From: a phage
Length of the DNA stretch: 64,000 nt
NCBI GenBank assembly: GCA_029945195.1
Contig: GCA_029945195.1_4117.1
Strand: one strand, 5' to 3'
Shown here: in pieces, positions 236 to 17,110 of the stretch
Layout: the number at the start of each line of letters is the position of its first letter
Numbering within the stretch: position 1 is the first letter of the stretch
Notes under the pieces: model-generated
The model's input: the letters and a program-made list of their open reading frames with translations, nothing else
Told to the model about the DNA's origin: nothing
Databases searched by the model: none
Translations under genes and position numbers: made by a program

Positions 236-2899
236 ATGGCAGGAGATCTACTCTCACCTGGCGTTTCCATTTCAGTAACTGATGAAAGTATGAGTACCGC
301 TGCTGCTCCTGGCACTGTACCACTATTTGTAATCGCTACTGCTGAAGACAAACTTGTCCCAGGAAGCAGTGCAATAGCTGCGGGAACTACTAAAGCAAAC
401 GCTGGAAAACTACAGCTTCTAACATCACAAAAAAGCTCACTTGATACCTATGGTACACCAATTTTTCAAATGAATAACGGTTCTGTTGTTCAAGGTGATG
501 AACTAAACGAATATGGCCTACATGCAGTATATTCTTATCTAGGCATTACTAACCGTGCATATGTAATTCGTGCTGATATCGATCTAGCACAACTAGCACC
601 AAGTGCTGAAGCACCAACTGGCCCAGTATCCAATGGTACTTTGTGGTTTGATACCGCACAATCACAAGTAGAAGCGTATGTAGCGAAGAAAGATAGTCCA
701 AGCAGTTTTTATGATTGGCAACTTAAGCCAGTAACTATTGTAAGTGCTGAAGAAGTTGAAGATGTAAGTCTAGTAGGTTTAAATGTTGATGATTTAGTTC
801 TACGTTACAAACCAAGCAATGGTCAGATGCTAATGTATAAACGTTCTGCTTCTGGGCTAGTGCAAATGGAAACTTATCTATCACCAATTAACAAAGTTCC
901 AGTTGGCTCAACTGTAGAAAAAGGTAACATTTGGATTCGTGATGGTTACACCCAAAATGGTTCAAACTATTTTGGTACTCGTTTTGTTATTAAACGTTAT
1001 GCATCCCTAACTCAAGTTTGGAATATTGTACCAGCATATACTGGTAATTCATTCCAAGAAATTGAAGCGAAAAGTGGTGTACTAAACAATAGTTATATCG
1101 CATCTCGTTTTGATGAAGATAGTAAGAGTTTCTCTTTCTATATTCAAAGTGCAAAACTAACAACAATTAGTGCTCCTGCTTTGCCACTTGGTGAAACTAT
1201 TATTGAACAAGCAGGTGCTGATAGTTATATGACTTTTGTTTATTTGAATAAATCAGTTAAAGTACTAGCAGTTCCACAAGGCGGTGTTATTAATACCCAA
1301 ACTATCATCAATAATCTAAATGCAAATGCTGAAATTATTAACGATGGTTTTAAATTTAAACGTGAAACTAATGGTGGTTTAGTTGTTTCCAATACAAAAG
1401 GTTACAGTTTCAAAATCACACAAAGTGGTGATGATATTTTTGCTGAATCTGAACTACAAAAACTAACTGTAGATAGTAACAACTACTCTCTAATTAACGT
1501 TAATAACTTCCGTGTTAGTTATTCAGTACCACGTAGTGTAGCAAAAGAAGGAACTCTCTGGTATGATTTCGGGAACTCCGATAATCTAACTGTAACTATG
1601 TATGTTGCTGATGTTGCTAATGATGAATGGGATCTAGTACAAGAAGAAAACAAATATGTACAAGTTGATGAACCAGCGGCTGACCGTTTAATTTGGGTTT
1701 GTCCTTTGTCTCAAGGCATTGATGGTTATGATTTCTATCGTAACGTTGATGGTGAATGGGTTAAACTTGACAGTACTGATCAAAGTACACTAAATGGTAT
1801 GATTTTCCAAGACTTTAATTTCCCAAGCCAAGTTCCTGCTGCGGCATTGTATCAAAATGGTATGCTTGCAGTTGACCTAGGTAACACTGAAGGTGTTGTT
1901 AAGAAAATGGTTAATGGTCAATGGGAAGTTGTTAGTGGTGTAAGTCTTGATGGTGCTGGCCTATTTGGTCGTGCTGCACAACGTCAACTAGTAGTTGAAG
2001 CACTAGCTGCTGTTATTATTGGTAATGATGACATTCGTTCTGAATTTATTGATTTTAACCTAATTTGTGTACCTGGTTACGTTGAAACACTTGATGAATG
2101 TGTAACTTTAAACACTGATCGTAAAGAAACTGCATTTATTGTTACTGACGTTCCAGCACGTTTGAATCCAACCGGAAACGGTAGTGCTGTACAACAATGG
2201 GCTACTAATGCTAACAATGCACCAAGCAACGGTTCAGTTGGTCGTACAACTGCTTATGATTATGCTGCTCAGTATATGGGTTGGTGTCTAAGTACTAACG
2301 TTGATGGTGAAGAAGTTGCAGTTCCTGGTAGTACTATTGCAATGCGTACATATGCATACAGTGATAGTGTTAGTTATGTATGGTATCCACCTGCTGGTAC
2401 AACTCGTGGTGTTGTAACAAACGCTGCAAGTACTGGTTTTATCAACAGCGAAGGTGAATATCAACCAGTAGTATACAACCAAGGTCAACGTGACGTTATG
2501 TATACTAACAACATTAACCCAATTGCAATGCGTCCTAACCGTGGTTTGCTTGTTTATGGAGATAAAACTCTATCTGCTAATCAAACTTCTGCACTAAGTC
2601 GTGTTAACGTTGCTCGTTTAGTTGTTTATATTCGTCGTCAACTAGAAATTATTTCCGAACCATTCCTATTCCGTTTGAATACTCCAAGTACTCGTCAGGA
2701 ATTTAGTGGTGTAGTTAATAGCTTCTTGGCTGAAATTGTTCAACAACAGGGTCTTTATAACTTCGCAGTGGTTTGTGATGAAAGTAACAACACCGCAGAG
2801 CGTATTGACCGTAATGAACTTTGGATGGATATTGCAATTCAACCAACTAAGAGTATTAACTTCATTTACGTACCAATCCGTATCGAGAAAACTCAATAA
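236..2899 (+). CDS. contractile tail sheath protein (T4 gp18-like)
   Basis: 887 aa; C-terminal region (LLVYGDKTLSA...RVNVARLVVYIRRQLE...YNFAVVCDESNNTAERIDRNELWMDIAIQPTKSINFIYVPIRI) matches the conserved C-terminal domain of T4 gp18 as recalled; GGAGG RBS 7 nt upstream of ATG; hairpin terminator follows. Confidence 0.9.
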   Translation: MAGDLLSPGVSISVTDESMSTAAAPGTVPLFVIATAEDKLVPGSSAIAAGTTKANAGKLQLLTSQKSSLDTYGTPIFQMNNGSVVQGDELNEYGLHAVYSYLGITNRAYVIRADIDLAQLAPSAEAPTGPVSNGTLWFDTAQSQVEAYVAKKDSPSSFYDWQLKPVTIVSAEEVEDVSLVGLNVDDLVLRYKPSNGQMLMYKRSASGLVQMETYLSPINKVPVGSTVEKGNIWIRDGYTQNGSNYFGTRFVIKRYASLTQVWNIVPAYTGNSFQEIEAKSGVLNNSYIASRFDEDSKSFSFYIQSAKLTTISAPALPLGETIIEQAGADSYMTFVYLNKSVKVLAVPQGGVINTQTIINNLNANAEIINDGFKFKRETNGGLVVSNTKGYSFKITQSGDDIFAESELQKLTVDSNNYSLINVNNFRVSYSVPRSVAKEGTLWYDFGNSDNLTVTMYVADVANDEWDLVQEENKYVQVDEPAADRLIWVCPLSQGIDGYDFYRNVDGEWVKLDSTDQSTLNGMIFQDFNFPSQVPAAALYQNGMLAVDLGNTEGVVKKMVNGQWEVVSGVSLDGAGLFGRAAQRQLVVEALAAVIIGNDDIRSEFIDFNLICVPGYVETLDECVTLNTDRKETAFIVTDVPARLNPTGNGSAVQQWATNANNAPSNGSVGRTTAYDYAAQYMGWCLSTNVDGEEVAVPGSTIAMRTYAYSDSVSYVWYPPAGTTRGVVTNAASTGFINSEGEYQPVVYNQGQRDVMYTNNINPIAMRPNRGLLVYGDKTLSANQTSALSRVNVARLVVYIRRQLEIISEPFLFRLNTPSTRQEFSGVVNSFLAEIVQQQGLYNFAVVCDESNNTAERIDRNELWMDIAIQPTKSINFIYVPIRIEKTQ

Positions 2900-2905
2900 A
2901 ACACT

Positions 2906-2932
2906 AAGGGAACCTTTTGGTTCCCTTTTTTA
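2906..2932 (+). terminator. rho-independent terminator after tail sheath gene
   Basis: agggaacc-tttt-ggttccct hairpin followed by a T-tract. Confidence 0.7.
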
Positions 2933-3295
2933 TTGATTAAAATTAAATACCTTTATATTGATGTTATAAAGGAACATTATGGATATGGAAGAAATACTAA
3001 AAAAAAACAATACAAGATGTCAGTAAAATAGTTTTAACTCAGTTGGAATCAGTACACATACTAAATATATTTTTAAAAAATTTGGAAGATTGTCGGTATA
3101 ATTGAAAAATACGAAGTATACACAAATGGAAAATGGTCTATATCAGTAAACTATATTGACCACACTAAACGAAAAAGATACTTATATTGTGTTAATATTA
3201 ATTGGTTCCCTGTTGATGACACTTTAGTTAATTAAAAATATACTTCCAGATAGATAAATAATATAAAGATGTCATTCCATAATAGGAGAATATAA

Positions 3296-3982
3296 ATGGC
3301 TACAATGCTTGATCGATATGGCGTACCGCTCGCTGGCGGTGGTCGTATCTCTATGAAACAACCAAAAGCAAAATACAAATTTCGTGTTATTTTCTTTGGT
3401 TTTGGTACTAATGATGATGGTAATATGATTACACTAGACACCAATACAGTTGGGGCAGTATCTGTATCACATGAAAATGTCACTGTTCATAGTTACAACA
3501 GTTCTGCACACTATAAAGGTAAGTACACTTGGGATACAATTGATGTTGCTTTCCGTGACTCAGTAGGTAATGCTTCTGCTAAAGCACTATACAACCAAAT
3601 GCGTAAAGAATTCAACTACTACAGTCAAGAATCTCGCATGACTGATTCACAATTTAAATTCGAAATGTGGATTCAAGAACTTGATGGTTCTAATAGTGAA
3701 AATACAACAAACTTGTTTGAAGGAACATTGAGTACTTGGGTATGTCAAGGTTGCTTTATTGAATCCAGCAACTTTGGTGATTGGGATTATTCCTCAAGTG
3801 AAGCACAAGTTATTTCAATGACTGTTCAACCAGATGGTTGTGCTAAATTGGGTCCAAATGGCGAAGCGTTCGGTGATGAAGTTAGTGGCTTCGGTAATCC
3901 ATCAACTGCTACCTCTATTTCTGGTGCACAAACTAATATTAGTAGTACTACTCTACCAGATAGTAACTTCTACGAAAATTAA
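3296..3982 (+). CDS. tail tube protein (paralog 1)
   Basis: 228 aa directly downstream of sheath; N-terminus M..DRYGVPLAGGGRISMKQPKAKYKFRVIFFGFGT shared with the next ORF; AGGAG RBS. Confidence 0.7.
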   Translation: MATMLDRYGVPLAGGGRISMKQPKAKYKFRVIFFGFGTNDDGNMITLDTNTVGAVSVSHENVTVHSYNSSAHYKGKYTWDTIDVAFRDSVGNASAKALYNQMRKEFNYYSQESRMTDSQFKFEMWIQELDGSNSENTTNLFEGTLSTWVCQGCFIESSNFGDWDYSSSEAQVISMTVQPDGCAKLGPNGEAFGDEVSGFGNPSTATSISGAQTNISSTTLPDSNFYEN

Positions 3983-4865: not shown

Positions 4866-6973
<2,108 letters not shown>

Positions 6974-9636: not shown

Positions 9637-10617
9637 ATGGCTAAAAAAATTAATGAAGCACAAGTTAAAATCGATATCGCAGGTTTAGAATCTGATGATT
9701 TGGAAACTCTATCACGTATGTTAGCTCTTGCTGGTCAAGCTGAACGTCAAGACCCAGTAGTTGCTGCTCCAGTACCATCTATGGGGTCTATGACTCCATC
9801 TCTTCCACCTATTGCTCCACTAGATCTCGATTCTATTGGTGCTGAAGAAGAAATTGGTGGAATTGAAACTTCAGTTGAAGACCCACTAGCAGCGGCAGTT
9901 GATGATCTTTCCGCTGATGTTGGTGATTTTGGTGCTGACACAGATGAAGTTAGTATGGATGCTGAATTTTCAGAACCAGGTGTAGAAGGTGAAGAAGATT
10001 TTTCTCTTGACCTTAGTGGTCAACCTCAACTAGAATCAGTTGAAGAAGACGATGAGGAAGAAGAAGAAATTATTGAAGAAGAATTCGATTTTAGTCGTAT
10101 GCTATCTCTTGCTGGTATTAACGAAGAAGAAGACGAAGATTTTTCAGTAGAGGGTAATCCTGCTACCGATAAAGAAATGAAAGATACCCAATTTCTACCA
10201 GATCTAAGTATCTCTGAAGATGAAGAACCATCTAACAGTACTGATTATGGTCCATATGAAACAGAAGCTGATGCCGTTCGTGATGGTCAACTAAAGACTA
10301 ATGGTGTTGAAGGTGATCATTTTGTTGTAATTGCAAAAGGCAATCAATTTTATTGGAGACGTGTTGTAGATGAAGATCTTGACAATCGTCCAGAACCTGA
10401 GTATTATGATAATGAAGGGAACGAAAATCGTGTTCATAAATTTGAACCAAAATTCCCAGGCACTGCATTAGGAGATAACCCACTAAATGTTAATGAAAGT
10501 GAAGAAGATGATTCACCTGAAGGTAACATTGACTTGGAAGATGATTCTGATGAAGAAGTAGAAGATATTTTTGAAAGTCTCCAAGAAAAATACAAGAAAT
10601 TTTTAGGAGACAAATAA
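9637..10617 (+). CDS. highly acidic low-complexity protein
   Basis: 326 aa, extremely D/E-rich (e.g. VEEDDEEEEEIIEEEFDF); could be a scaffold or internal protein, or a DNA mimic (inference only). Confidence 0.5.
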   Translation: MAKKINEAQVKIDIAGLESDDLETLSRMLALAGQAERQDPVVAAPVPSMGSMTPSLPPIAPLDLDSIGAEEEIGGIETSVEDPLAAAVDDLSADVGDFGADTDEVSMDAEFSEPGVEGEEDFSLDLSGQPQLESVEEDDEEEEEIIEEEFDFSRMLSLAGINEEEDEDFSVEGNPATDKEMKDTQFLPDLSISEDEEPSNSTDYGPYETEADAVRDGQLKTNGVEGDHFVVIAKGNQFYWRRVVDEDLDNRPEPEYYDNEGNENRVHKFEPKFPGTALGDNPLNVNESEEDDSPEGNIDLEDDSDEEVEDIFESLQEKYKKFLGDK

Positions 10618-10618
10618 T

Positions 10619-11014
10619 ATGCAATATAATTATCGTGAACTAGTTGAAGCGTTAGACGAAATTACCGGAAGAGATGAAGACGAAAGTTTTTCAGTTGAAG
10701 TTGAATCCGATGTTGTAGCAGTTGATGTTCTTAAGGATATTACCAAATGTCTTATTGATATTGTTGATAAGATTAAATCTGGTGAAGACCAAAAAGAAAT
10801 TGTAGATAAACTACAAAAAGCCTGTGACATTTTGTCTGACATTCGATATAATGATGAAAGTACTGAAGTTGCTGATGAAGAAGTGTTGGAAGCCATTGCA
10901 GGTTGTTTTGGAACTGAAGGTATGGGACCATCAATTGACAAAGAAGGCGTACAACACTATAATGAGCCTGGTGCACCATCTTATGCTGCACGTCAAGGTT
11001 TTGTTGGAGACTAA
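10619..11014 (+). CDS. hypothetical acidic protein
   Basis: 131 aa; GGAG RBS; translationally coupled to the upstream ORF. Confidence 0.5.
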   Translation: MQYNYRELVEALDEITGRDEDESFSVEVESDVVAVDVLKDITKCLIDIVDKIKSGEDQKEIVDKLQKACDILSDIRYNDESTEVADEEVLEAIAGCFGTEGMGPSIDKEGVQHYNEPGAPSYAARQGFVGD

Positions 11015-11017
11015 TAT

Positions 11018-11398
11018 ATGTTTCCAGAACCATCACATAACAGTACTGAATATCAAAATAATGTACTTTCCAAAGTTAGGGAAGTACATGAATCAGATTC
11101 AGAAATAACAGACCGTATGCTTCTGATGTCAATTTTTGAAAATTTCAGAACTGGCGGTGGTTTACGTCTTAGCAAGTTTGGGTATGGAATTTGTAAAGAA
11201 AATAATCTTTATGAATTTACCAAAATCCCCTTGCAAAGAGAATTTAAAAGTTCTATAATGTTTACATCACTTGACAGAATATGTACTTCACCTTATTATG
11301 TTGAAGGTCAGTACATATATCTGACAGATGCAATGATAATAACTGAATTAACATTGTGTTGTGATGATTTTAAACAGTTATTTTCTATTCATATGTAA
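11018..11398 (+). CDS. hypothetical protein
   Basis: 126 aa; GGAG RBS; last gene before the promoter-rich spacer. Confidence 0.45.
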   Translation: MFPEPSHNSTEYQNNVLSKVREVHESDSEITDRMLLMSIFENFRTGGGLRLSKFGYGICKENNLYEFTKIPLQREFKSSIMFTSLDRICTSPYYVEGQYIYLTDAMIITELTLCCDDFKQLFSIHM

Positions 11399-11421
11399 GA
11401 AAAATGAATTAAAAAAAAATG

Positions 11422-11449
11422 TTGACAAGATAGAATGATGTGATACAAT
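11422..11449 (+). promoter_or_regulatory. sigma70-type promoter P1 (TTGACA-N16-TACAAT, extended -10)
   Basis: TTGACA at 11422-11427, 16-nt spacer ending in gatgtga, TACAAT at 11444-11449; A-tract upstream. Confidence 0.6.
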
Positions 11450-11515
11450 AAGCATCAGACATAAAGTTTTCAAGCGACACAAGATGTGAGTTTGAAAAAA
11501 AAAGAAAAAAAGTGA

Positions 11516-11543
11516 TTGACAAGTTGAAACGATGTGATATAAT
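11516..11543 (+). promoter_or_regulatory. sigma70-type promoter P2 (TTGACA-N16-TATAAT, extended -10)
   Basis: Perfect -35 and -10 hexamers with 16-nt spacer and TGn extended -10; same gatgtgata.aat architecture as P1; A-rich UP-like tract upstream. Confidence 0.65.
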
Positions 11544-11604
11544 GTTCACATCAAGACAGCAAAGAGATTTACCTTTTAAACACACGGATGATTCATGAAG
11601 TAAC

Positions 11605-11645
11605 AAAGGAACTGATAAGTTAAATTATTTTAACACAGTTCCTTT
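11605..11645 (+). promoter_or_regulatory. leader hairpin in 5' UTR of the AAA+ ATPase gene
   Basis: Perfect 10-bp inverted repeat aaaggaactg / cagttccttt with a 21-nt loop, followed by a U-rich run; a 12-codon mini-ORF (11588-11623) overlaps the left arm. Confidence 0.4.
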
Positions 11646-11712
11646 ACTTTTGCCCACGGATTGGCTATAATAGAAACTTAAACGATTTTATCCAACAAAA
11701 GGAAATATATAC

Positions 11713-13038
11713 ATGACTACTCAAAACGATATCCTGAACGTTAAACTGACTCCAAAGAAAGCTAAAGAAGCAATGGCACTAGCTGACATGATTCAAGATA
11801 GCCTGATGATTTGGGGTAGCCCAGGTATCGGTAAGTCTGCAATCGCTCGTCAATACGCTGATGAAAATTACCCACTGCGTAAAGATAACGTAGCTAAAAT
11901 CGAGTTCATGAAACAACAAATCGAAGCTGACCCTGAAAATGCTGATCAGCTACGCCGTGAACTGGCTGCATTTGAAGCAAAACTAATCGACCAAGATACT
12001 AACTTTATCGATTTCCGTTTGTCTCAAATCGAACCAAGTGACCTTCGCGGTATTCCAGTACCAGAGAAGCTTTTCCGTAAAACTGACGGTTCTCTTCTGA
12101 AAGAATCTGAGCTTGCCGAAGCAAAAGATTATGTAGCTGAAACTGCGGTAGTATGGGCTGCACCTAAAGTTCTGAAATTGTCCGAAGATTGGAAAGGTGT
12201 TATTCTGTTTGACGAAATTAACTCTGCAATGCCTATTGTTCAGGCAGCGTCTTATCAGCTAATCCTCGACCGTTGTGTTGGTGAGATGAAGCTACCTAAG
12301 ACTGCACTGATTCTTGCAGCAGGTAACCGTGAAACTGATGGTGGTGTAACTTTCTCTCTTGCTACACCACTGCGTGACCGTATGACTCACATTGAGATGA
12401 TTCCTTATCATCAAGATTGGATTAACGATTATGCGATTGCAAAACGTTTGAACCCAGCAACTGTTGCGTTCATCAACAACACTGGTTCTAAGTACTTTAA
12501 CACACTTAGTCCACAAGATCCTTCTCACAGTGGTGGTACTTCTCCACGTTCATGGGAAGCAGTAGCACGCTACGAAGATCTCAAGAAAACTAAGACAATT
12601 GATAAAGAAGTGTTCCGTGCAATGATTGCTGGTCGTGTTGGTGAAGGTGTTGCAACTGAATACATTGAGTACGTTGAGAACGTTGCTAAACTACCAGATA
12701 CTATGTCTATTCTGTCTGGTGAAATCAAAGAAATCGACGCAACGCTGGATATTTCTGCGAACTACTTTATCACTCTGAACTTGGTTTATAAAATTATCGA
12801 CCTGTTCAATGAGAAGCAAGAACAACGTCTACCAGTGGAAGAATGGGGTAAACTGTGTAACAACTTCATCACCTTCCTAGACCATAACTTCTCTGCAACT
12901 CAAGCAGAACTGGCAGTACTGGCAATTCGTACCATCACGCTTCATAAGGTTGCGATTTCCATTAAAGATGTACCAGCGTTTAAAGATTTCATCGCTAAGT
13001 ACTCTGATCTTGTACGTAAAGCACGCTCTCTTGGCTAA
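11713..13038 (+). CDS. MoxR-like AAA+ ATPase
   Basis: 441 aa; Walker A GSPGIGKS, Walker B ILFDEIN, MoxR-type core followed by a C-terminal extension; codon usage differs from neighbours (CTG/CGT/GGT-rich). Confidence 0.8.
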   Translation: MTTQNDILNVKLTPKKAKEAMALADMIQDSLMIWGSPGIGKSAIARQYADENYPLRKDNVAKIEFMKQQIEADPENADQLRRELAAFEAKLIDQDTNFIDFRLSQIEPSDLRGIPVPEKLFRKTDGSLLKESELAEAKDYVAETAVVWAAPKVLKLSEDWKGVILFDEINSAMPIVQAASYQLILDRCVGEMKLPKTALILAAGNRETDGGVTFSLATPLRDRMTHIEMIPYHQDWINDYAIAKRLNPATVAFINNTGSKYFNTLSPQDPSHSGGTSPRSWEAVARYEDLKKTKTIDKEVFRAMIAGRVGEGVATEYIEYVENVAKLPDTMSILSGEIKEIDATLDISANYFITLNLVYKIIDLFNEKQEQRLPVEEWGKLCNNFITFLDHNFSATQAELAVLAIRTITLHKVAISIKDVPAFKDFIAKYSDLVRKARSLG

Positions 13039-13059
13039 TTAACAAAGAGTTGTTGACAA

Positions 13060-13090
13060 GAAGGATGCCTAATGGTATCCTTCTTTTATC
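13060..13090 (+). terminator. rho-independent terminator after the AAA+ ATPase gene
   Basis: 10-bp stem gaaggatgcc / ggtatccttc (one G-U), UAAU loop, then ttttatc. Confidence 0.6.
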
Positions 13091-13112
13091 TTAACTAAAC
13101 GAGGAAATATAC

Positions 13113-14537
13113 ATGTCAGATAACAAATCTACTTCAAGATTCAATGAAGTATCTCCGGCACTCCAGAAAGAATGTCAAGAACGTCTGGTTCTGGCTCGTA
13201 CATCTTTGATGTTAACTGCACCATTCTTTGGTGTACTCGCTTCACGTTTACGTCCAGTTCCTAATAATACATGGTGTCGTACTCTAGCAGTGGATGGTAA
13301 ACATCTATTCTACAACGTAGAATTTGTAATGGGCATTCAAGACCCATCTAAAAAGAAAGAATATGAAGAAGCTATTCGTGAAAAGCACCCTGAAGTTACA
13401 GACGAACAATTAAAAGAAATGACTGAAGGTTTGACTGATGAAAACCTTGTTGCTGTAATTTGTCATGAAATTCTACACTGTGCTTACGATCACTTCCTTC
13501 GTCGTGGTATGCGTGATCCACAACGTTATAACCGTGCAGCGGATTATGCCATTAACCAAATCATCGTTCGTGAGAAAATTGGGAAAATCCAAAGTTCATG
13601 GTTGTATGATAAAAAATATGAAGGCATGACCGCAGAAGAGATTTACATTCTTCTTGAAGAAGAAGAACAAAAAGAAGATGGTGAAGGTGAAGGTCAACCA
13701 CAAAGTGGCGGCGGTGAAGGTGAAGGTAAAAATCGCGGTACTTTTGGCGATATTAAAGATGGTAAGGGTAAACCAAAAGGTACTACCATTGACCAGCATG
13801 ACGTTCCACAAGAAGGTCAAGAGGGTGGTTCAAGTGAACAGCAAAAACGTGATTACATGGATGATTTCAAAACAGCAATGATGAATGCTGCTCGTGCAGG
13901 TGGTACACCAGCAGAAATCGCTCGTATGATTAACAACTTTAAAGAACCAAAGATTGACTGGCGTTCAAAACTTCAACGTACACTTCGTAGTTGGTTGAAG
14001 TCTGATGCAACATATCAAAATCCGAATCGTCGTTCTTGGGGTGCAGGTTTTGGTTCTAATGGCTCATTCTATGGTAATCCAATTTACCCAGGGATGAAAC
14101 CAGATGATGATATTGATATTGCGATTGCACTAGATGCTTCTGGGTCTATTTCTGAAGATATGCTTCGTGATTTCATTAGTGAAGTTCTTGGCATCACTAA
14201 ACAATTCAAACAGTTTAAGATTCGTATCATGACTTTTGATACTGAAGTTTATACTGTAAAGGATTACAAAACTGGCGAAGAACGTAAGATTCTGGAATAT
14301 CCAGTAAAAGGTGGTGGTGGTACTGACTTTGAAGCAGTATGGGTTCATATGAAGAACGACAACTATAAGCCTAAACAGCTTGTAATGTTTACTGATGGTG
14401 AACCGTGGCAGTCATGGGGTGATCCAAACTACTGTAAAACACTGTTCGTGATTCACAGTAACCCAAATAAAGTTGCACCATTTGGTGAGACTGTACACTA
14501 CGAATATGAAGCTGATAAAAAGCGTCAACGTAGTTAA
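13113..14537 (+). CDS. VWA-domain protein with N-terminal HExxH metallopeptidase-like domain
   Basis: 474 aa; HEILHCAYDH zincin-like motif, acidic/Gly-rich linker, C-terminal VWA domain with MIDAS-like DASGS and GGGGTD; architecture resembles the partners usually paired with MoxR ATPases. Confidence 0.75.
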   Translation: MSDNKSTSRFNEVSPALQKECQERLVLARTSLMLTAPFFGVLASRLRPVPNNTWCRTLAVDGKHLFYNVEFVMGIQDPSKKKEYEEAIREKHPEVTDEQLKEMTEGLTDENLVAVICHEILHCAYDHFLRRGMRDPQRYNRAADYAINQIIVREKIGKIQSSWLYDKKYEGMTAEEIYILLEEEEQKEDGEGEGQPQSGGGEGEGKNRGTFGDIKDGKGKPKGTTIDQHDVPQEGQEGGSSEQQKRDYMDDFKTAMMNAARAGGTPAEIARMINNFKEPKIDWRSKLQRTLRSWLKSDATYQNPNRRSWGAGFGSNGSFYGNPIYPGMKPDDDIDIAIALDASGSISEDMLRDFISEVLGITKQFKQFKIRIMTFDTEVYTVKDYKTGEERKILEYPVKGGGGTDFEAVWVHMKNDNYKPKQLVMFTDGEPWQSWGDPNYCKTLFVIHSNPNKVAPFGETVHYEYEADKKRQRS

Positions 14538-14549
14538 GTACTAAATAAT

Positions 14550-14580
14550 GAGAACGGAAAATTCCGTTCTCTTCTTTTAT
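14550..14580 (+). terminator. rho-independent terminator
   Basis: gagaacgg-aaaatt-ccgttctc hairpin followed by ttcttttat. Confidence 0.65.
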
Positions 14581-14612: not shown

Positions 14613-14646
14613 AGTTAATGTACCAATATACATGGAGAGTATTAAA

Positions 14647-14925
14647 ATGGAACAAGAAAATAATCAAATTCAACTAACCCTTCTAGACCTAATCAATGCT
14701 GCAAAAATCATGGAAGCTGCTGTTGCACGAAACACCTTTAAAGTTGAAGAACTTGTTGAGGTTGCTCCAGTTGTATCTAAATTTGTTTCTTTTGCAAATG
14801 TAGCTCTTGAAGATATTAAAGCACAAGAAGATGCAGCTAAAGAAGAAGCTGAATCACAAGAAGATGCAGCTAAAGAAGAAGCTGAATCACAAGATAGTGA
14901 AACTCAAGAAGATAAAGGAGAATAA
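14647..14925 (+). CDS. small acidic protein with 11-aa tandem repeat
   Basis: ORF track starts at 14632, but the ATG at 14647 has a GGAGAG RBS 7 nt upstream; contains duplicated SQEDAAKEEAE. Confidence 0.5.
   Translation: MEQENNQIQLTLLDLINAAKIMEAAVARNTFKVEELVEVAPVVSKFVSFANVALEDIKAQEDAAKEEAESQEDAAKEEAESQDSETQEDKGE
14822..14894 (+). repeat. 33-bp direct tandem repeat (2 copies plus partial) inside the small ORF
   Basis: cacaagaagatgcagctaaagaagaagctgaat repeated exactly twice then a truncated copy; in frame. Confidence 0.85.
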
Positions 14926-14927
14926 TT

Positions 14928-15584
14928 ATGGCAGCTATTCGTCATGTTGGTGTAATGCGTAATACAGGTTCTCGTGTTTTTGTTGTTTGGCGTTCACTAC
15001 CAGATGATCCTGAACACTGCCTTATCGTTTATCGTGATTCACTACCAGAAGCATATGTACACGCAGTAACTGATATTGTTATGGGTCATGGTCAATCTAA
15101 TATTGATTTGTGGGAAGTAATGCATAAAATTGGTTATCTCGATGGACGCAAAATGCTAGATGTTCTACACAACATGCAGCATCTACGTCGCGTTCGTACT
15201 TGTGATATTGATATGCACACTGGTGGTAATAATAAAATTTCTCTTGATGTTCTAAACAAAGCATTAGATGAAAATCAAGCGAAAGTACAAGAAGATGGTA
15301 AAGTAAAAGACTTTAACCCATTCAATCCACAAGAAGCAGACACTAAAGTAGAAGAAGCTACTATTGTAGAACAACTTCTCACTGATGCACAAAAATATGA
15401 AAAACTGGCTAAAGAACATTATGAACGTGCATACAATTTAGAGCCAAGCTTGCGTCCGCAAACACAAGTTGTTGAACAACCGAAAGATAGTAAAACAATT
15501 TATCTAGAAATTCCAGAAGGTATTTCACAGACTAAAGCTATTGAGAAAGTAAAACAACTATTTGCAGAACGTAAAGCAAAATAA
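14928..15584 (+). CDS. hypothetical protein
   Basis: 218 aa; AGGAG RBS; no recognisable motif. Confidence 0.5.
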   Translation: MAAIRHVGVMRNTGSRVFVVWRSLPDDPEHCLIVYRDSLPEAYVHAVTDIVMGHGQSNIDLWEVMHKIGYLDGRKMLDVLHNMQHLRRVRTCDIDMHTGGNNKISLDVLNKALDENQAKVQEDGKVKDFNPFNPQEADTKVEEATIVEQLLTDAQKYEKLAKEHYERAYNLEPSLRPQTQVVEQPKDSKTIYLEIPEGISQTKAIEKVKQLFAERKAK

Positions 15585-15587
15585 AAT

Positions 15588-16181
15588 ATGAAAAAGAATG
15601 AATTAGATGAAGCAATTAAAGGTTTATCTAATGTATGTTTTAGTGGCGGGGCAGCAGGTGCTGACCGCCTTTTTTCTATCTATGCAAAAAATAATGGATT
15701 TGAAGTTATTAATTTTTCATTCAAAGGTCATGAGCATAGTGTAGATGAAAGTACTATATTAGAAATACCATCCAATATTCTATCTGATATTTCTATATTA
15801 AATCAACTAAACATTGCATGTTACTCGTTGCAGCGAAAAGTACCAAAACCTGGTTCTTATGTTTACAACTTACTTGCAAGGAATAGTTATCAGATACTTA
15901 ATACAGAAAGAATATATTGTATTGCAAATATCACATCACCAACTAAGGTAAGTGGTGGTACTGCATGGGCAGTACAGATGTATATGGATTCAGTTGAAAA
16001 TCCTGAAATTTATTGTTATGATATGAATTCACGTTCAGTATTTTATTTCGATACAGTACTGAAAGAGTTCACACAAACATTCGTCGTTCCAGCACCACAT
16101 GGTAACTGGACTGGTATTGGTTCACGCAATGCCACCGAAAAACATATGGAACATTTTATTACATTTTTCAAGGAAGAATAA
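15588..16181 (+). CDS. SLOG-like Rossmann-fold protein (DprA/LOG/YpsA-like)
   Basis: 197 aa; N-terminal FSGGAAGAD motif typical of the SLOG superfamily (inference from motif only); stop overlaps the start of the ThyA-family gene. Confidence 0.4.
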   Translation: MKKNELDEAIKGLSNVCFSGGAAGADRLFSIYAKNNGFEVINFSFKGHEHSVDESTILEIPSNILSDISILNQLNIACYSLQRKVPKPGSYVYNLLARNSYQILNTERIYCIANITSPTKVSGGTAWAVQMYMDSVENPEIYCYDMNSRSVFYFDTVLKEFTQTFVVPAPHGNWTGIGSRNATEKHMEHFITFFKEE

Positions 16182-17110
16182 TGAAACAACTACAAGAACT
16201 ATATCAAAAAATTCTAGATGAAGGCGTAGAAAGCGTTGACCGTACTGGTGTTGGAACAATCAAACTTATCGGTCAACAAATGCGTTTTGACCTTAAAGAT
16301 GGTTTCCCAGCAGTGACGACAAAACGTCTAGCTTGGAAAGCAATGACTTCAGAATTACTATGGTTTATTGAAGGTTCCCATGATGAGCGTCGCCTTTGTG
16401 AAATTTTGCATGGAACTCGTGATACAGAAAAGAAAACTATTTGGACAGATAATTACCTAAATCAAGGCGTTGCTCTTGGTTATACTGATGGTGAGTTAGG
16501 TCCAGTGTATGGTAAGCAATGGCGTGAATGGGAAGATTATAAATTTAGTTCCAGTACTGAAGAAATTCAAGAATTAAAAGATAAAGGATACAAAGTTATC
16601 GATTATACTGGTTCACATGGTGTTGTTATGAAACGTACAACTGACCAATTACAAGAACTAATCAAAGGTATAAAGTCCGATCCATATGGCCGTCGCCACA
16701 TTCTAAGTGCATGGAACGTTGGTGAGCTTGATGATATGACGTTACCACCTTGTCATAGCTTTGTGCAATTTTGTGTAGTGCAAGGAAAACTAAGCTGTAT
16801 TCTGCATCAACGCTCCGCTGATCTATTTTTAGGAGTTCCATTTAATATCAGTAGTTACTCACTACTAACTCATATGATTGCACAAATTACTGGTTTAGAT
16901 GTTGGTGAATTTATTTGGAATGGTGGTGATTGTCACATTTATAAAAACCACGTTGAACAAGTAAAAGAACAACTACAGCGAAAACCTCGTGAATTACCTG
17001 AATTGTGGCTTGATCCTACAATTACTAATATTGAAGATTTCACTATGGATTCTTTTAAATTAGTGAATTACAACCCAATGCCAACAATTAAAGCACCTAT
17101 GGCTGTATAA
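16181..17110 (+). CDS. thyA: thymidylate synthase family protein (ThyA-like; dUMP hydroxymethylase not excluded)
   Basis: 309 aa; ThyA hallmarks DRTGVGT, GPVYGKQWR, SAWNVGELD, catalytic PCH, QRSADLFLGVPFNISSY and C-terminal KAPMAV; ~29-aa insertion after GKQWREW. Confidence 0.85.
   Translation: MKQLQELYQKILDEGVESVDRTGVGTIKLIGQQMRFDLKDGFPAVTTKRLAWKAMTSELLWFIEGSHDERRLCEILHGTRDTEKKTIWTDNYLNQGVALGYTDGELGPVYGKQWREWEDYKFSSSTEEIQELKDKGYKVIDYTGSHGVVMKRTTDQLQELIKGIKSDPYGRRHILSAWNVGELDDMTLPPCHSFVQFCVVQGKLSCILHQRSADLFLGVPFNISSYSLLTHMIAQITGLDVGEFIWNGGDCHIYKNHVEQVKEQLQRKPRELPELWLDPTITNIEDFTMDSFKLVNYNPMPTIKAPMAV

Follow-up and report, generated by a model that had tools for sequence, protein, structure and literature searches.

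A MoxR-class ATPase and a HExxH/VWA-like partner in an Asteriusvirus jumbo coliphage: a counterpart of N4 gp24/gp25 and its possible role as a split ATP-dependent protease or chaperone

What does a virulent phage do with an ATPase of the MoxR class and a partner protein that joins a HExxH motif to a VWA-like domain? This question is raised by positions 11400..14580 of a 64,000-nucleotide (nt) stretch of phage DNA (contig GCA_029945195.1_4117.1 of GenBank assembly GCA_029945195.1), which is called the window in its whole length. A preliminary description of this stretch had recognised two adjacent genes of that kind, named A and B here, and we followed it up by computational analysis. It is probable, with considerable room for doubt, that A and B form a two-component machine of the MoxR type, that is, an ATP-driven processing protease or chaperone that is targeted by a MIDAS (metal ion-dependent adhesion site), contains A in excess, and acts on a non-virion target before or alongside replication.

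The two proteins and their relatives

At 11400..14580 the DNA shares 99.8% identity with PBECO4-like Asteriusvirus jumbo coliphages and 99.2% with 121Q and phAPEC6, and by this identity the source is an Asteriusvirus jumbo coliphage. Two open reading frames (ORFs) on the plus strand occupy the region, B beginning 75 nt downstream of A, and all motifs quoted in the preliminary description translate at the expected places in them:

11713..13038, plus strand: gene A, MoxR-class AAA+ ATPase of 441 amino acids (aa) and 49.5 kDa; equals 121Q gp563 and phAPEC6 gp265c; homolog of N4 gp24
11815..11838, plus strand: Walker A motif of A, GSPGIGKS (from the translation)
12202..12222, plus strand: Walker B motif of A, ILFDEIN (from the translation)
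13113..14537, plus strand: gene B, DUF2201 protein of 474 aa; equals 121Q gp564 and phAPEC6 gp264c; homolog of N4 gp25
13464..13478, plus strand: HEILH in the zincin-like N-terminal domain of B (from the translation)
13668..13787, plus strand: Gly/Glu-rich, predicted disordered linker of B (from the translation)
14133..14147, plus strand: MIDAS motif DASGS in the VWA-like domain of B (residues 335-462, which also hold GGGGT and FTDG)

By its motifs, its AAA_3- and AAA_5-bearing homologs and its modelled fold, A is a MoxR-class AAA+ ATPase; membership is argued in this way because its score against the MoxR-specific profile AAA_3 (PF07726) is 16.7 bits, under the cut-off of 27. Generic AAA alone reaches threshold in Pfam (21.3 bits) and AAA_5 (PF07728) gives no match, whereas more distant homologs of ~360 aa (E 1e-43 to 1e-50) carry both AAA_3 and AAA_5. 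Besides the Walker motifs, A carries sensor 1 (AAGNR), PLRDRM and sensor 2 (SPRSW). Among 39 aligned homologs, Walker A K41 and S42, Walker B E168, sensor-1 N205, R223 and sensor-2 R279 are invariant and Walker B D167 is nearly so, R223 being a candidate arginine finger. When an AlphaFold2 model of A (predicted local distance difference test score 86.7) was compared with the PDB by Foldseek, the top 12 matches were all NorQ chains (E 5e-7) and CbbQ2 stood at rank 16, with FtsH and Lon among the weaker fold matches. The model places a long beta-hairpin (strands 114-123 and 140-149) after the conserved PSDLRG, at the position of the helix-2 insert of the MoxR class, and ends in a long C-terminal helical extension. 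Two features set A apart from its shorter relatives as specific to its lineage, namely the extended form of this hairpin (114-149) and a two-helix insert after the Walker A helix (approximately residues 53-95).

The partner gave clearer results in the profile searches that the preliminary description had proposed, which are thus favourable for B and only generic for A. B matches DUF2201_N, named by Pfam a 'putative metallopeptidase domain', at 2e-35 (123 bits against a cut-off of 23), and DUF2201 ('VWA-like') at 7e-21. Among 43 homologs, reaching down to ~41% identity, the HExxH residues H118, E119 and H122 are invariant and sit within a helix (109-128); R130, R134, N140, D144 and N148 are likewise invariant, as is a DxH (D227/H229) directly after the linker. 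The third zinc ligand may be sought among the candidates D144/N148 and D227/H229, all of them invariant. The MIDAS is complete and invariant in 43 sequences (D341, S343, S345, T404, and D428), and the C-terminal domain has the alpha/beta fold of VWA domains.

A sequence search of the PDB with A and with B returned nothing significant, and a profile search of the PDB with B yielded nothing beyond weak similarity to the HExxH helix of selecase (E 0.13). Isolated N-terminal domains of the B family gave sub-threshold matches to Peptidase_M48 (7 of 14 members, best 2e-4) and also to PhageMetallopep, SprT-like and other zincin families. Together with the Pfam family and the invariant HExxH, these matches suggest that the N-terminal domain is a zincin-like putative metallopeptidase, and the invariant catalytic glutamate points to hydrolysis rather than to a mere binding domain. 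NCBIfam held nothing for the pair, and the PADLOC defence-system models gave only noise for A (E > 0.02) and no match for B. The earlier identification of a MoxR-type ATPase with a HExxH/VWA partner is upheld by the placement of the motifs, the two DUF2201-type matches and the NorQ/CbbQ2 fold.

Two published labels of B were considered and rejected. The label 'HNH endonuclease' (phrog_1314 and many GenBank records) finds no HNH family among the Pfam matches of B; its probable source is the presence of HNH homing-endonuclease genes adjoining B homologs. Such genes are inserted between the ATPase and VWA-peptidase genes in two unrelated phage lineages (G7C gp24.1 at 2467..2943 and MIJ3_00181 at 1940..3436 of the respective stretches examined). 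The note 'T4 gp25-like' on the B ortholog of 121Q is an annotation error, whereas 'N4 gp25-like', as used in phAPEC6, names a real relationship.

By sequence comparison, the pair is the jumbo-phage version of N4 gp24/gp25. The N4-like phage G7C has a gp24 and a gp25 annotated as similar to those of N4, and we show here the homology of both proteins: in BLASTP, A is 30% identical to G7C gp24 over the ATPase core (E 7e-25), and full-length B is 26% identical to G7C gp25 (E 1e-26), with the HExxH and MIDAS retained. The gene order in G7C is gp24, gp25, dCTP deaminase, ThyA. N4 gp24 (an AAA ATPase) and gp25 (a vWFA protein) resemble the pair in gene order, homology, HExxH, MIDAS and downstream nucleotide-metabolism genes. 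The core of N4-like phages comprises 14 genes, which include these two, and both belong to the middle genes (PMC4193335). The N4-like ATPase is ~90 aa shorter, the jumbo-phage A adding the helical insert after the Walker A helix and the extended hairpin, and B has an extra 36-aa insert and the Gly/Glu-rich linker in comparison with N4-like gp25. Transcription also differs, as host-type promoters are predicted in the window whereas N4 middle genes depend on phage RNA polymerase II (PMC4193335).

The novelty assumed in the preliminary description does not hold, as these genes have been annotated and described before and are re-identified here rather than newly discovered from the window. Their orthologs in phAPEC6 are labelled 'MoxR ATPase' and 'N4 gp25-like', and for 'group 2.2 jumbo phages' Iyer et al. 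(2021) reported a MoxR-vWA pair that carries an N-terminal metallopeptidase, which they proposed to function in virion assembly (PMC7824862). That pair has the same domain architecture and phage type as ours, the likeness resting on description and not on accessions. New details are the positionally conserved terminator between A and B, a hairpin between strong promoters and the start of A, and three conserved neighbours.

Both families are widely distributed. A tblastn search of phage records found B in 685 and A in 816, and the lineages common to both are the Rak2-like and Asterius jumbo phages, PA5oct-like phages, rV5-like Vequintavirinae and N4-like Schitoviridae; A occurs additionally in Atu_ph07. 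A profile search of 1.84 billion cluster representatives (clusters at 50% identity) returned 24,935 relatives of B at E <= 0.001. Scanning 185,579 species genomes yielded 44 loci, with each of the two families clustered in 36 loci, and in the per-locus table all 33 loci from which both ORFs were recovered have A upstream of B, with both genes on one strand. G7C and GAP32 have the same order. The loci fall into two contexts. One consists of phage-like contigs binned into metagenome-assembled genomes, with B 33-39% identical and homologs of the neighbouring genes gp562, C and D listed below; the other consists of true chromosomal loci, with B ~28% identical, in SUP05/Thioglobus-type and other Gammaproteobacteria or in Rhizobiales. 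The gammaproteobacterial chromosomal loci adjoin lipA, lipB and a rhodanese gene.

Promoters, hairpins and codon usage

The regulatory elements around the two genes are as follows:

11401..11449, plus strand: P1 module, consisting of an A-tract, TTGACA, a 16-nt spacer and a TG-extended TACAAT (11/12 consensus); hexamers at 11422..11449
11495..11543, plus strand: P2 module, consisting of an A-tract, TTGACA, a 16-nt spacer and a TG-extended TATAAT (12/12); hexamers at 11516..11543
11605..11655, plus strand: hairpin T0 (stem-loop at 11605..11645), an inverted repeat AAAGGAACTG...CAGTTCCTTT with an inner stem, then ACTTTTG; between P1/P2 and the start of A
11643..11671, plus strand: P3, promoter-like site TTTACT-17-TATAAT (10/12), overlapping the tail of T0
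13058..13095, plus strand: T1, intrinsic-terminator-like hairpin with a 12-bp stem and a T-run (stem and T-run at 13058..13085), between A and B
14550..14571, no strand assigned: T2, terminator after B with a 9-bp stem and T-runs on both strands; annotated terminator in phage G17
14585..14612, plus strand: P4, promoter-like site GGGACA-16-TGaTATAAT for the downstream genes C and D, after T2

The two near-perfect upstream promoters and the terminators after each gene were thus correctly described. P1 and P2 are two copies of a 49-nt tandem direct repeat. P1 is conserved in 121Q and BF17, and the -35 hexamer of P2 with its adjoining downstream sequence, CACATCAAGAC, is kept in EJP2 too. Sites matching at least 11/12 of the sigma-70 consensus number 10 in the window, compared with 4.3 +/- 2.2 in simulated sequence, and six of these 10 are co-oriented within 10379..11543, in the 1.2 kb upstream of A. 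Four of the six (10379, 10824, 10935, and 11271) lie inside the coding sequences of upstream virion genes.

The description of the pair as 'its own transcription unit' is nevertheless too simple; the promoters and terminators are real, but the conserved terminator between A and B, the T0 hairpin and P3 complicate it. The leader with T0 folds at z = -3.2, T0 is annotated as a terminator in G17, a comparable hairpin and T-run stand upstream of the ATPase gene in GAP32 and EJP2, and BF17 keeps the entire layout. T0 could terminate the upstream operon, act as an attenuator or form the 3' end of a short leader RNA. The leader from P1/P2 to the T0 hairpin (~100-200 nt, 11550..11655) may itself be a small RNA or an attenuator, and an Rfam scan of the leader and the unit gave no family matches. 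The motif ACGGATT in the spacer of P3 is kept in BF17, EJP2 and GAP32 although its surroundings have diverged, and it may be the binding site of a regulator.

T1 overlaps a weak promoter-like site (13053..13081). A hairpin with a T-run is found at the same position, with a different sequence, in BF17, EJP2 and GAP32, that is, in four phages with the window, and this positional conservation of the terminator fits a 6:1 complex. The ribosome-binding regions of A and B are nearly identical (GGAAATATAC ahead of ATG), so that a lower level of B would come from termination and weaker codon optimisation. BF17, EJP2 and GAP32 also have a hairpin at the position of T2 and keep the extended -10 element TGnTATAAT of P4.

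Codon usage was assessed by the codon adaptation index (CAI), with the E. coli weights of Sharp and Li, both among the 43 genes of the window and genome-wide in the near-identical, unannotated genome OR844650.1, which was stitched together and has 381 ORFs of at least 100 codons. The atypical usage that had been noticed in A holds in both. Within the window, A has the highest GC content at third codon positions (0.341, z 3.8) and the first CAI (0.463), followed by B, then C and D. Leucine is encoded by CTG at 41% in A against 3% elsewhere, CGT reaches 80% against 57%, GGT 95% against 69%, and TTA, AGA, GGA and ATA are not used. In OR844650.1 the CAI of A ranks 2 of 381 (0.464, compared with a mean of 0.253 and a standard deviation of 0.064), with the major capsid gene at rank 7 and B at rank 11. 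The suggestion of very high expression from host-type promoters agrees with these values and with the consensus sites, whereas the proposed recent acquisition does not. The bias is also found in the Asteriusviruses EJP2 and BF17, whose B proteins are ~76% and ~87% identical (in EJP2, A has a CAI of 0.516 and 57% CTG among leucine codons), and it is absent in Cronobacter phage GAP32. Because the bias is shared within the genus and directed to host-optimal and away from rare codons, it indicates selection for high expression in an E. coli-infecting genus rather than recent import.

The genome-wide comparison also connects this codon usage with the promoters. OR844650.1 has 108 near-consensus sigma-70 sites, almost all co-oriented with genes, in two clusters, and each of the other CTG-rich ORFs with top CAI lies directly behind such a site. 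Both the CTG share (p = 5e-5) and the CAI (p = 1e-6) are higher in genes that have a consensus site no more than 250 nt upstream. Of the 30 leucine codons in the capsid gene, 24 are CTA and none is CTG, and A thus follows a different codon regime. Two regimes can be located in OR844650.1, that of the capsid gene (118644..119819; CTA) and that of the ATPase gene (180108..181433) and of small ORFs behind consensus promoters (CTG). They may mark temporal classes or a changed availability of leucine tRNA during infection. The membership of A in the class with consensus promoters and CTG-rich codons, apart from the capsid-type regime, suggests earlier expression. Avoidance by A of the codons read by seven phage tRNAs was also considered as an early marker and rejected, as the capsid gene avoids them more.

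Neighbouring genes

Three neighbours of the pair recur in distant relatives:

11018..11398, plus strand: upstream neighbour, 121Q gp562 (phrog_15638); six distant phage-like contigs have homologs immediately upstream of the ATPase gene
14632..14925, plus strand: gene C (phrog_13789); homologs just downstream of B in three distant phage-like contigs
14928..15584, plus strand: gene D (phrog_15894); homologs just downstream of B in seven distant phage-like contigs

The conserved block is thus larger than the pair, and gp562, C and D may be its partners or substrates. D is found in 86 jumbo-phage records and is confined to the jumbo lineage. C contains a tandem 33-nt repeat (14834..14884) that encodes QEDAAKEEAES twice, and since the C ortholog of 121Q ends 33 nt earlier, the copy number of this repeat probably varies between strains.

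The flanking genes had been called structural, and this is true of the upstream flank, which is a same-strand run of virion structural genes; the downstream flank is non-structural. Beyond C and D, positions 15588..17110 hold a SLOG/DprA-like gene (phrog_768) and then thymidylate synthase (ThyA), which lies four genes downstream of the pair. In N4-like phages and uncultured phage contigs, too, a thymidylate synthase is encoded a few genes further downstream than the pair, either ThyA or the unrelated ThyX; in the uncultured contigs it is ThyX that lies downstream of B. In the rV5-like phage nomine, a 'MoxR ATPase' lies 3.6 kb from the B homolog on the opposite strand, and directly upstream of that B homolog is gene 54 (4984..5961 of the stretch examined), annotated as an 'anti-sigma factor'; either of the two may be the true partner.

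How the pair may act

Our reading starts from the domain identities, the conserved catalytic and MIDAS residues, the gene order, the regulatory elements and the codon statistics, which were observed directly; complex formation, stoichiometry, proteolysis, timing and target are what we infer from them. The closest models are NorQ-NorD and CbbQ-CbbO, which include the best structural matches of A, have adjacent genes and contain one partner per hexamer. For NorQD, it has been reported that one NorD binds per NorQ hexamer, that an extension of the VWA domain enters the pore while the MIDAS binds the target, and that ATP hydrolysis remodels the disordered NorD linker (PMC9976466, PMC13036017). B shares with NorD and CbbO the layout of N-terminal domain, disordered linker and MIDAS-bearing C-terminal VWA domain. 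NorD and CbbO differ from B in lacking a HExxH domain, in a larger VWA domain with a pore 'finger', and in their metalloenzyme targets; A is also much longer than NorQ (441 against ~260 aa).

By analogy with these systems, A would assemble into an AAA+ ring on which one copy of B docks via its VWA-like domain. The MIDAS of B would grip an acidic residue of a target protein, and ATP-driven movements would pass through the long disordered linker, so that the target is remodelled, or is presented to the zincin-like HExxH domain and cleaved. Such a pair would amount to a split processing protease or chaperone driven by ATP. FtsH and Lon offer an analogy for this logic, ATP-driven remodelling being coupled there to a zinc protease (FtsH) or another protease. 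Both activities are in one chain in FtsH and Lon, which belong to different AAA+ clades, whereas in the pair they would be split and joined by the VWA adaptor; no homology to A is claimed beyond the AAA+ fold. Host RNA polymerase would transcribe the unit from the strong consensus sigma-70 promoters, and the conserved terminator between A and B, together with the stronger codon optimisation of A, would supply the ring subunit in excess of its partner.

The least certain step is when and on what the pair acts. We propose action before or alongside DNA replication on a non-virion target, which may be a phage or host protein complex, and we prefer this with low certainty over dedicated virion maturation. 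The leaning derives from the promoter type, the CTG-rich codons, the middle-gene status of the N4 homologs and the neighbourhood of thymidylate and dCTP genes. A narrower version would have the pair serve in several virulent phage families as a split ATP-dependent protease, made early and at a very high level, that remodels or cleaves a specific non-virion target connected with the changeover to phage DNA and nucleotide metabolism; a host protein or a phage complex for dNTP synthesis or replication would be examples. The terminator within the unit would then keep B sub-stoichiometric, and the hairpin-bounded leader could be a small RNA or attenuator gating expression. We offer this version tentatively and consider it unlikely to be correct in all its parts.

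Several observations weigh against the reading that we favour. The VWA-like domain of B, at ~130 aa, is unusually small, and the sole candidate for a pore-entering finger as in NorD is its beta2-beta3 hairpin (369-386). The rV5-like phage examined lacks the linkage with thymidylate synthase, as do most bacterial loci. Host-type promoters are in use during the whole infection in the related PA5oct, so that a sigma-70 consensus is no proof of early timing, and the omics paper on that phage gives no gene-level timing for the homologs of A and B. As the preliminary description had stated, the role of the pair in a phage is not established: the literature searched shows no experimental role, and searches for DUF2201, COG3864, sll7028/7029 and N4 gp24/gp25 found no functional study. 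Moreover, 6 peptides of the ATPase (19% coverage) came from purified phAPEC6 virions, and the position of the pair at the end of a structural-gene block, after the same-strand run of virion genes, fits virion assembly.

These last two points belong to the published proposal that the pair chaperones assembly of the large virion while its fused peptidase processes structural proteins (PMC7824862), from which our leaning to an earlier, non-virion role departs. A precedent exists in the archaeal virus ATV, in which a MoxR-VWA system is required for tail development; its p618 MoxR ATPase and VWA partner are likewise a virus-encoded couple, although without a peptidase domain and likened here by description only. 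Giant virion proteins also occur in such phages, the window itself having ORFs of 3,332 and 1,840 codons, and one peptide of D accompanied those of the ATPase in the phAPEC6 virion preparations. However, the same preparation also contained thymidylate synthase and single-stranded DNA-binding protein, which suggests that abundant proteins were carried over, and in 121Q, GAP32 and PA5oct the structural mark is given to the neighbours of A and B but not to A and B themselves. Phages with different virions, namely N4-like podoviruses, rV5-like myoviruses and jumbo phages, have the homologs as core genes; those of N4 are middle genes with nucleotide-metabolism genes next to them; and chromosomal bacterial homologs exist. 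The CTG-rich codon regime of A is unlike that of the capsid gene, and phAPEC6 has a separate prohead protease (gp227c). We therefore regard a virion assembly or maturation factor as an improbable explanation, but one to be taken seriously.

An early and abundant ATP-driven protease could instead remove host proteins such as defence or transcription factors. The strong host-type promoters, the codon class shared with promoter-proximal small ORFs of putative early regions, and the restriction to virulent lineages within the phage collection are consistent with such a takeover. Anti-defence genes, however, are usually variable accessory genes, whereas the pair consists of conserved core genes across families with chromosomal bacterial relatives; there is no PADLOC family match, and the gene context suggests no specific target. 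We find host takeover or counter-defence distinctly unlikely on this evidence. It is also conceivable that the pair inserts a metal cofactor or activates an enzyme without proteolysis, in the manner of NorQD, CbbQO or CobST and perhaps on a phage nucleotide-metabolism enzyme. NorQD places iron into NO reductase and CbbQO is a Rubisco activase. The nearest solved structures are indeed NorQ and CbbQ, and the pair recurs beside thymidylate synthase of either type and dCTP deaminase. This explanation appears very improbable, as the HExxH glutamate is invariant in the 43 aligned sequences and kept in the homolog from N4-like G7C, nucleotide genes are not linked to the pair everywhere, and no metallochaperone signature was found.

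With this, the split ATP-dependent processing protease or chaperone with a non-virion target remains the reading that we prefer. Among the uncharacterised gene modules of virulent phages the pair is one of the most widespread, as N4-like phages have it in their core and it occurs in rV5-like and many jumbo phages, and in the phage of the window the high-expression signature of A is stronger than that of the capsid gene. Finding the substrate of the pair would fill a long-standing gap in N4 biology and would also extend the MoxR-VWA mechanism, recently resolved for NorQD, by a variant that is coupled to a protease.

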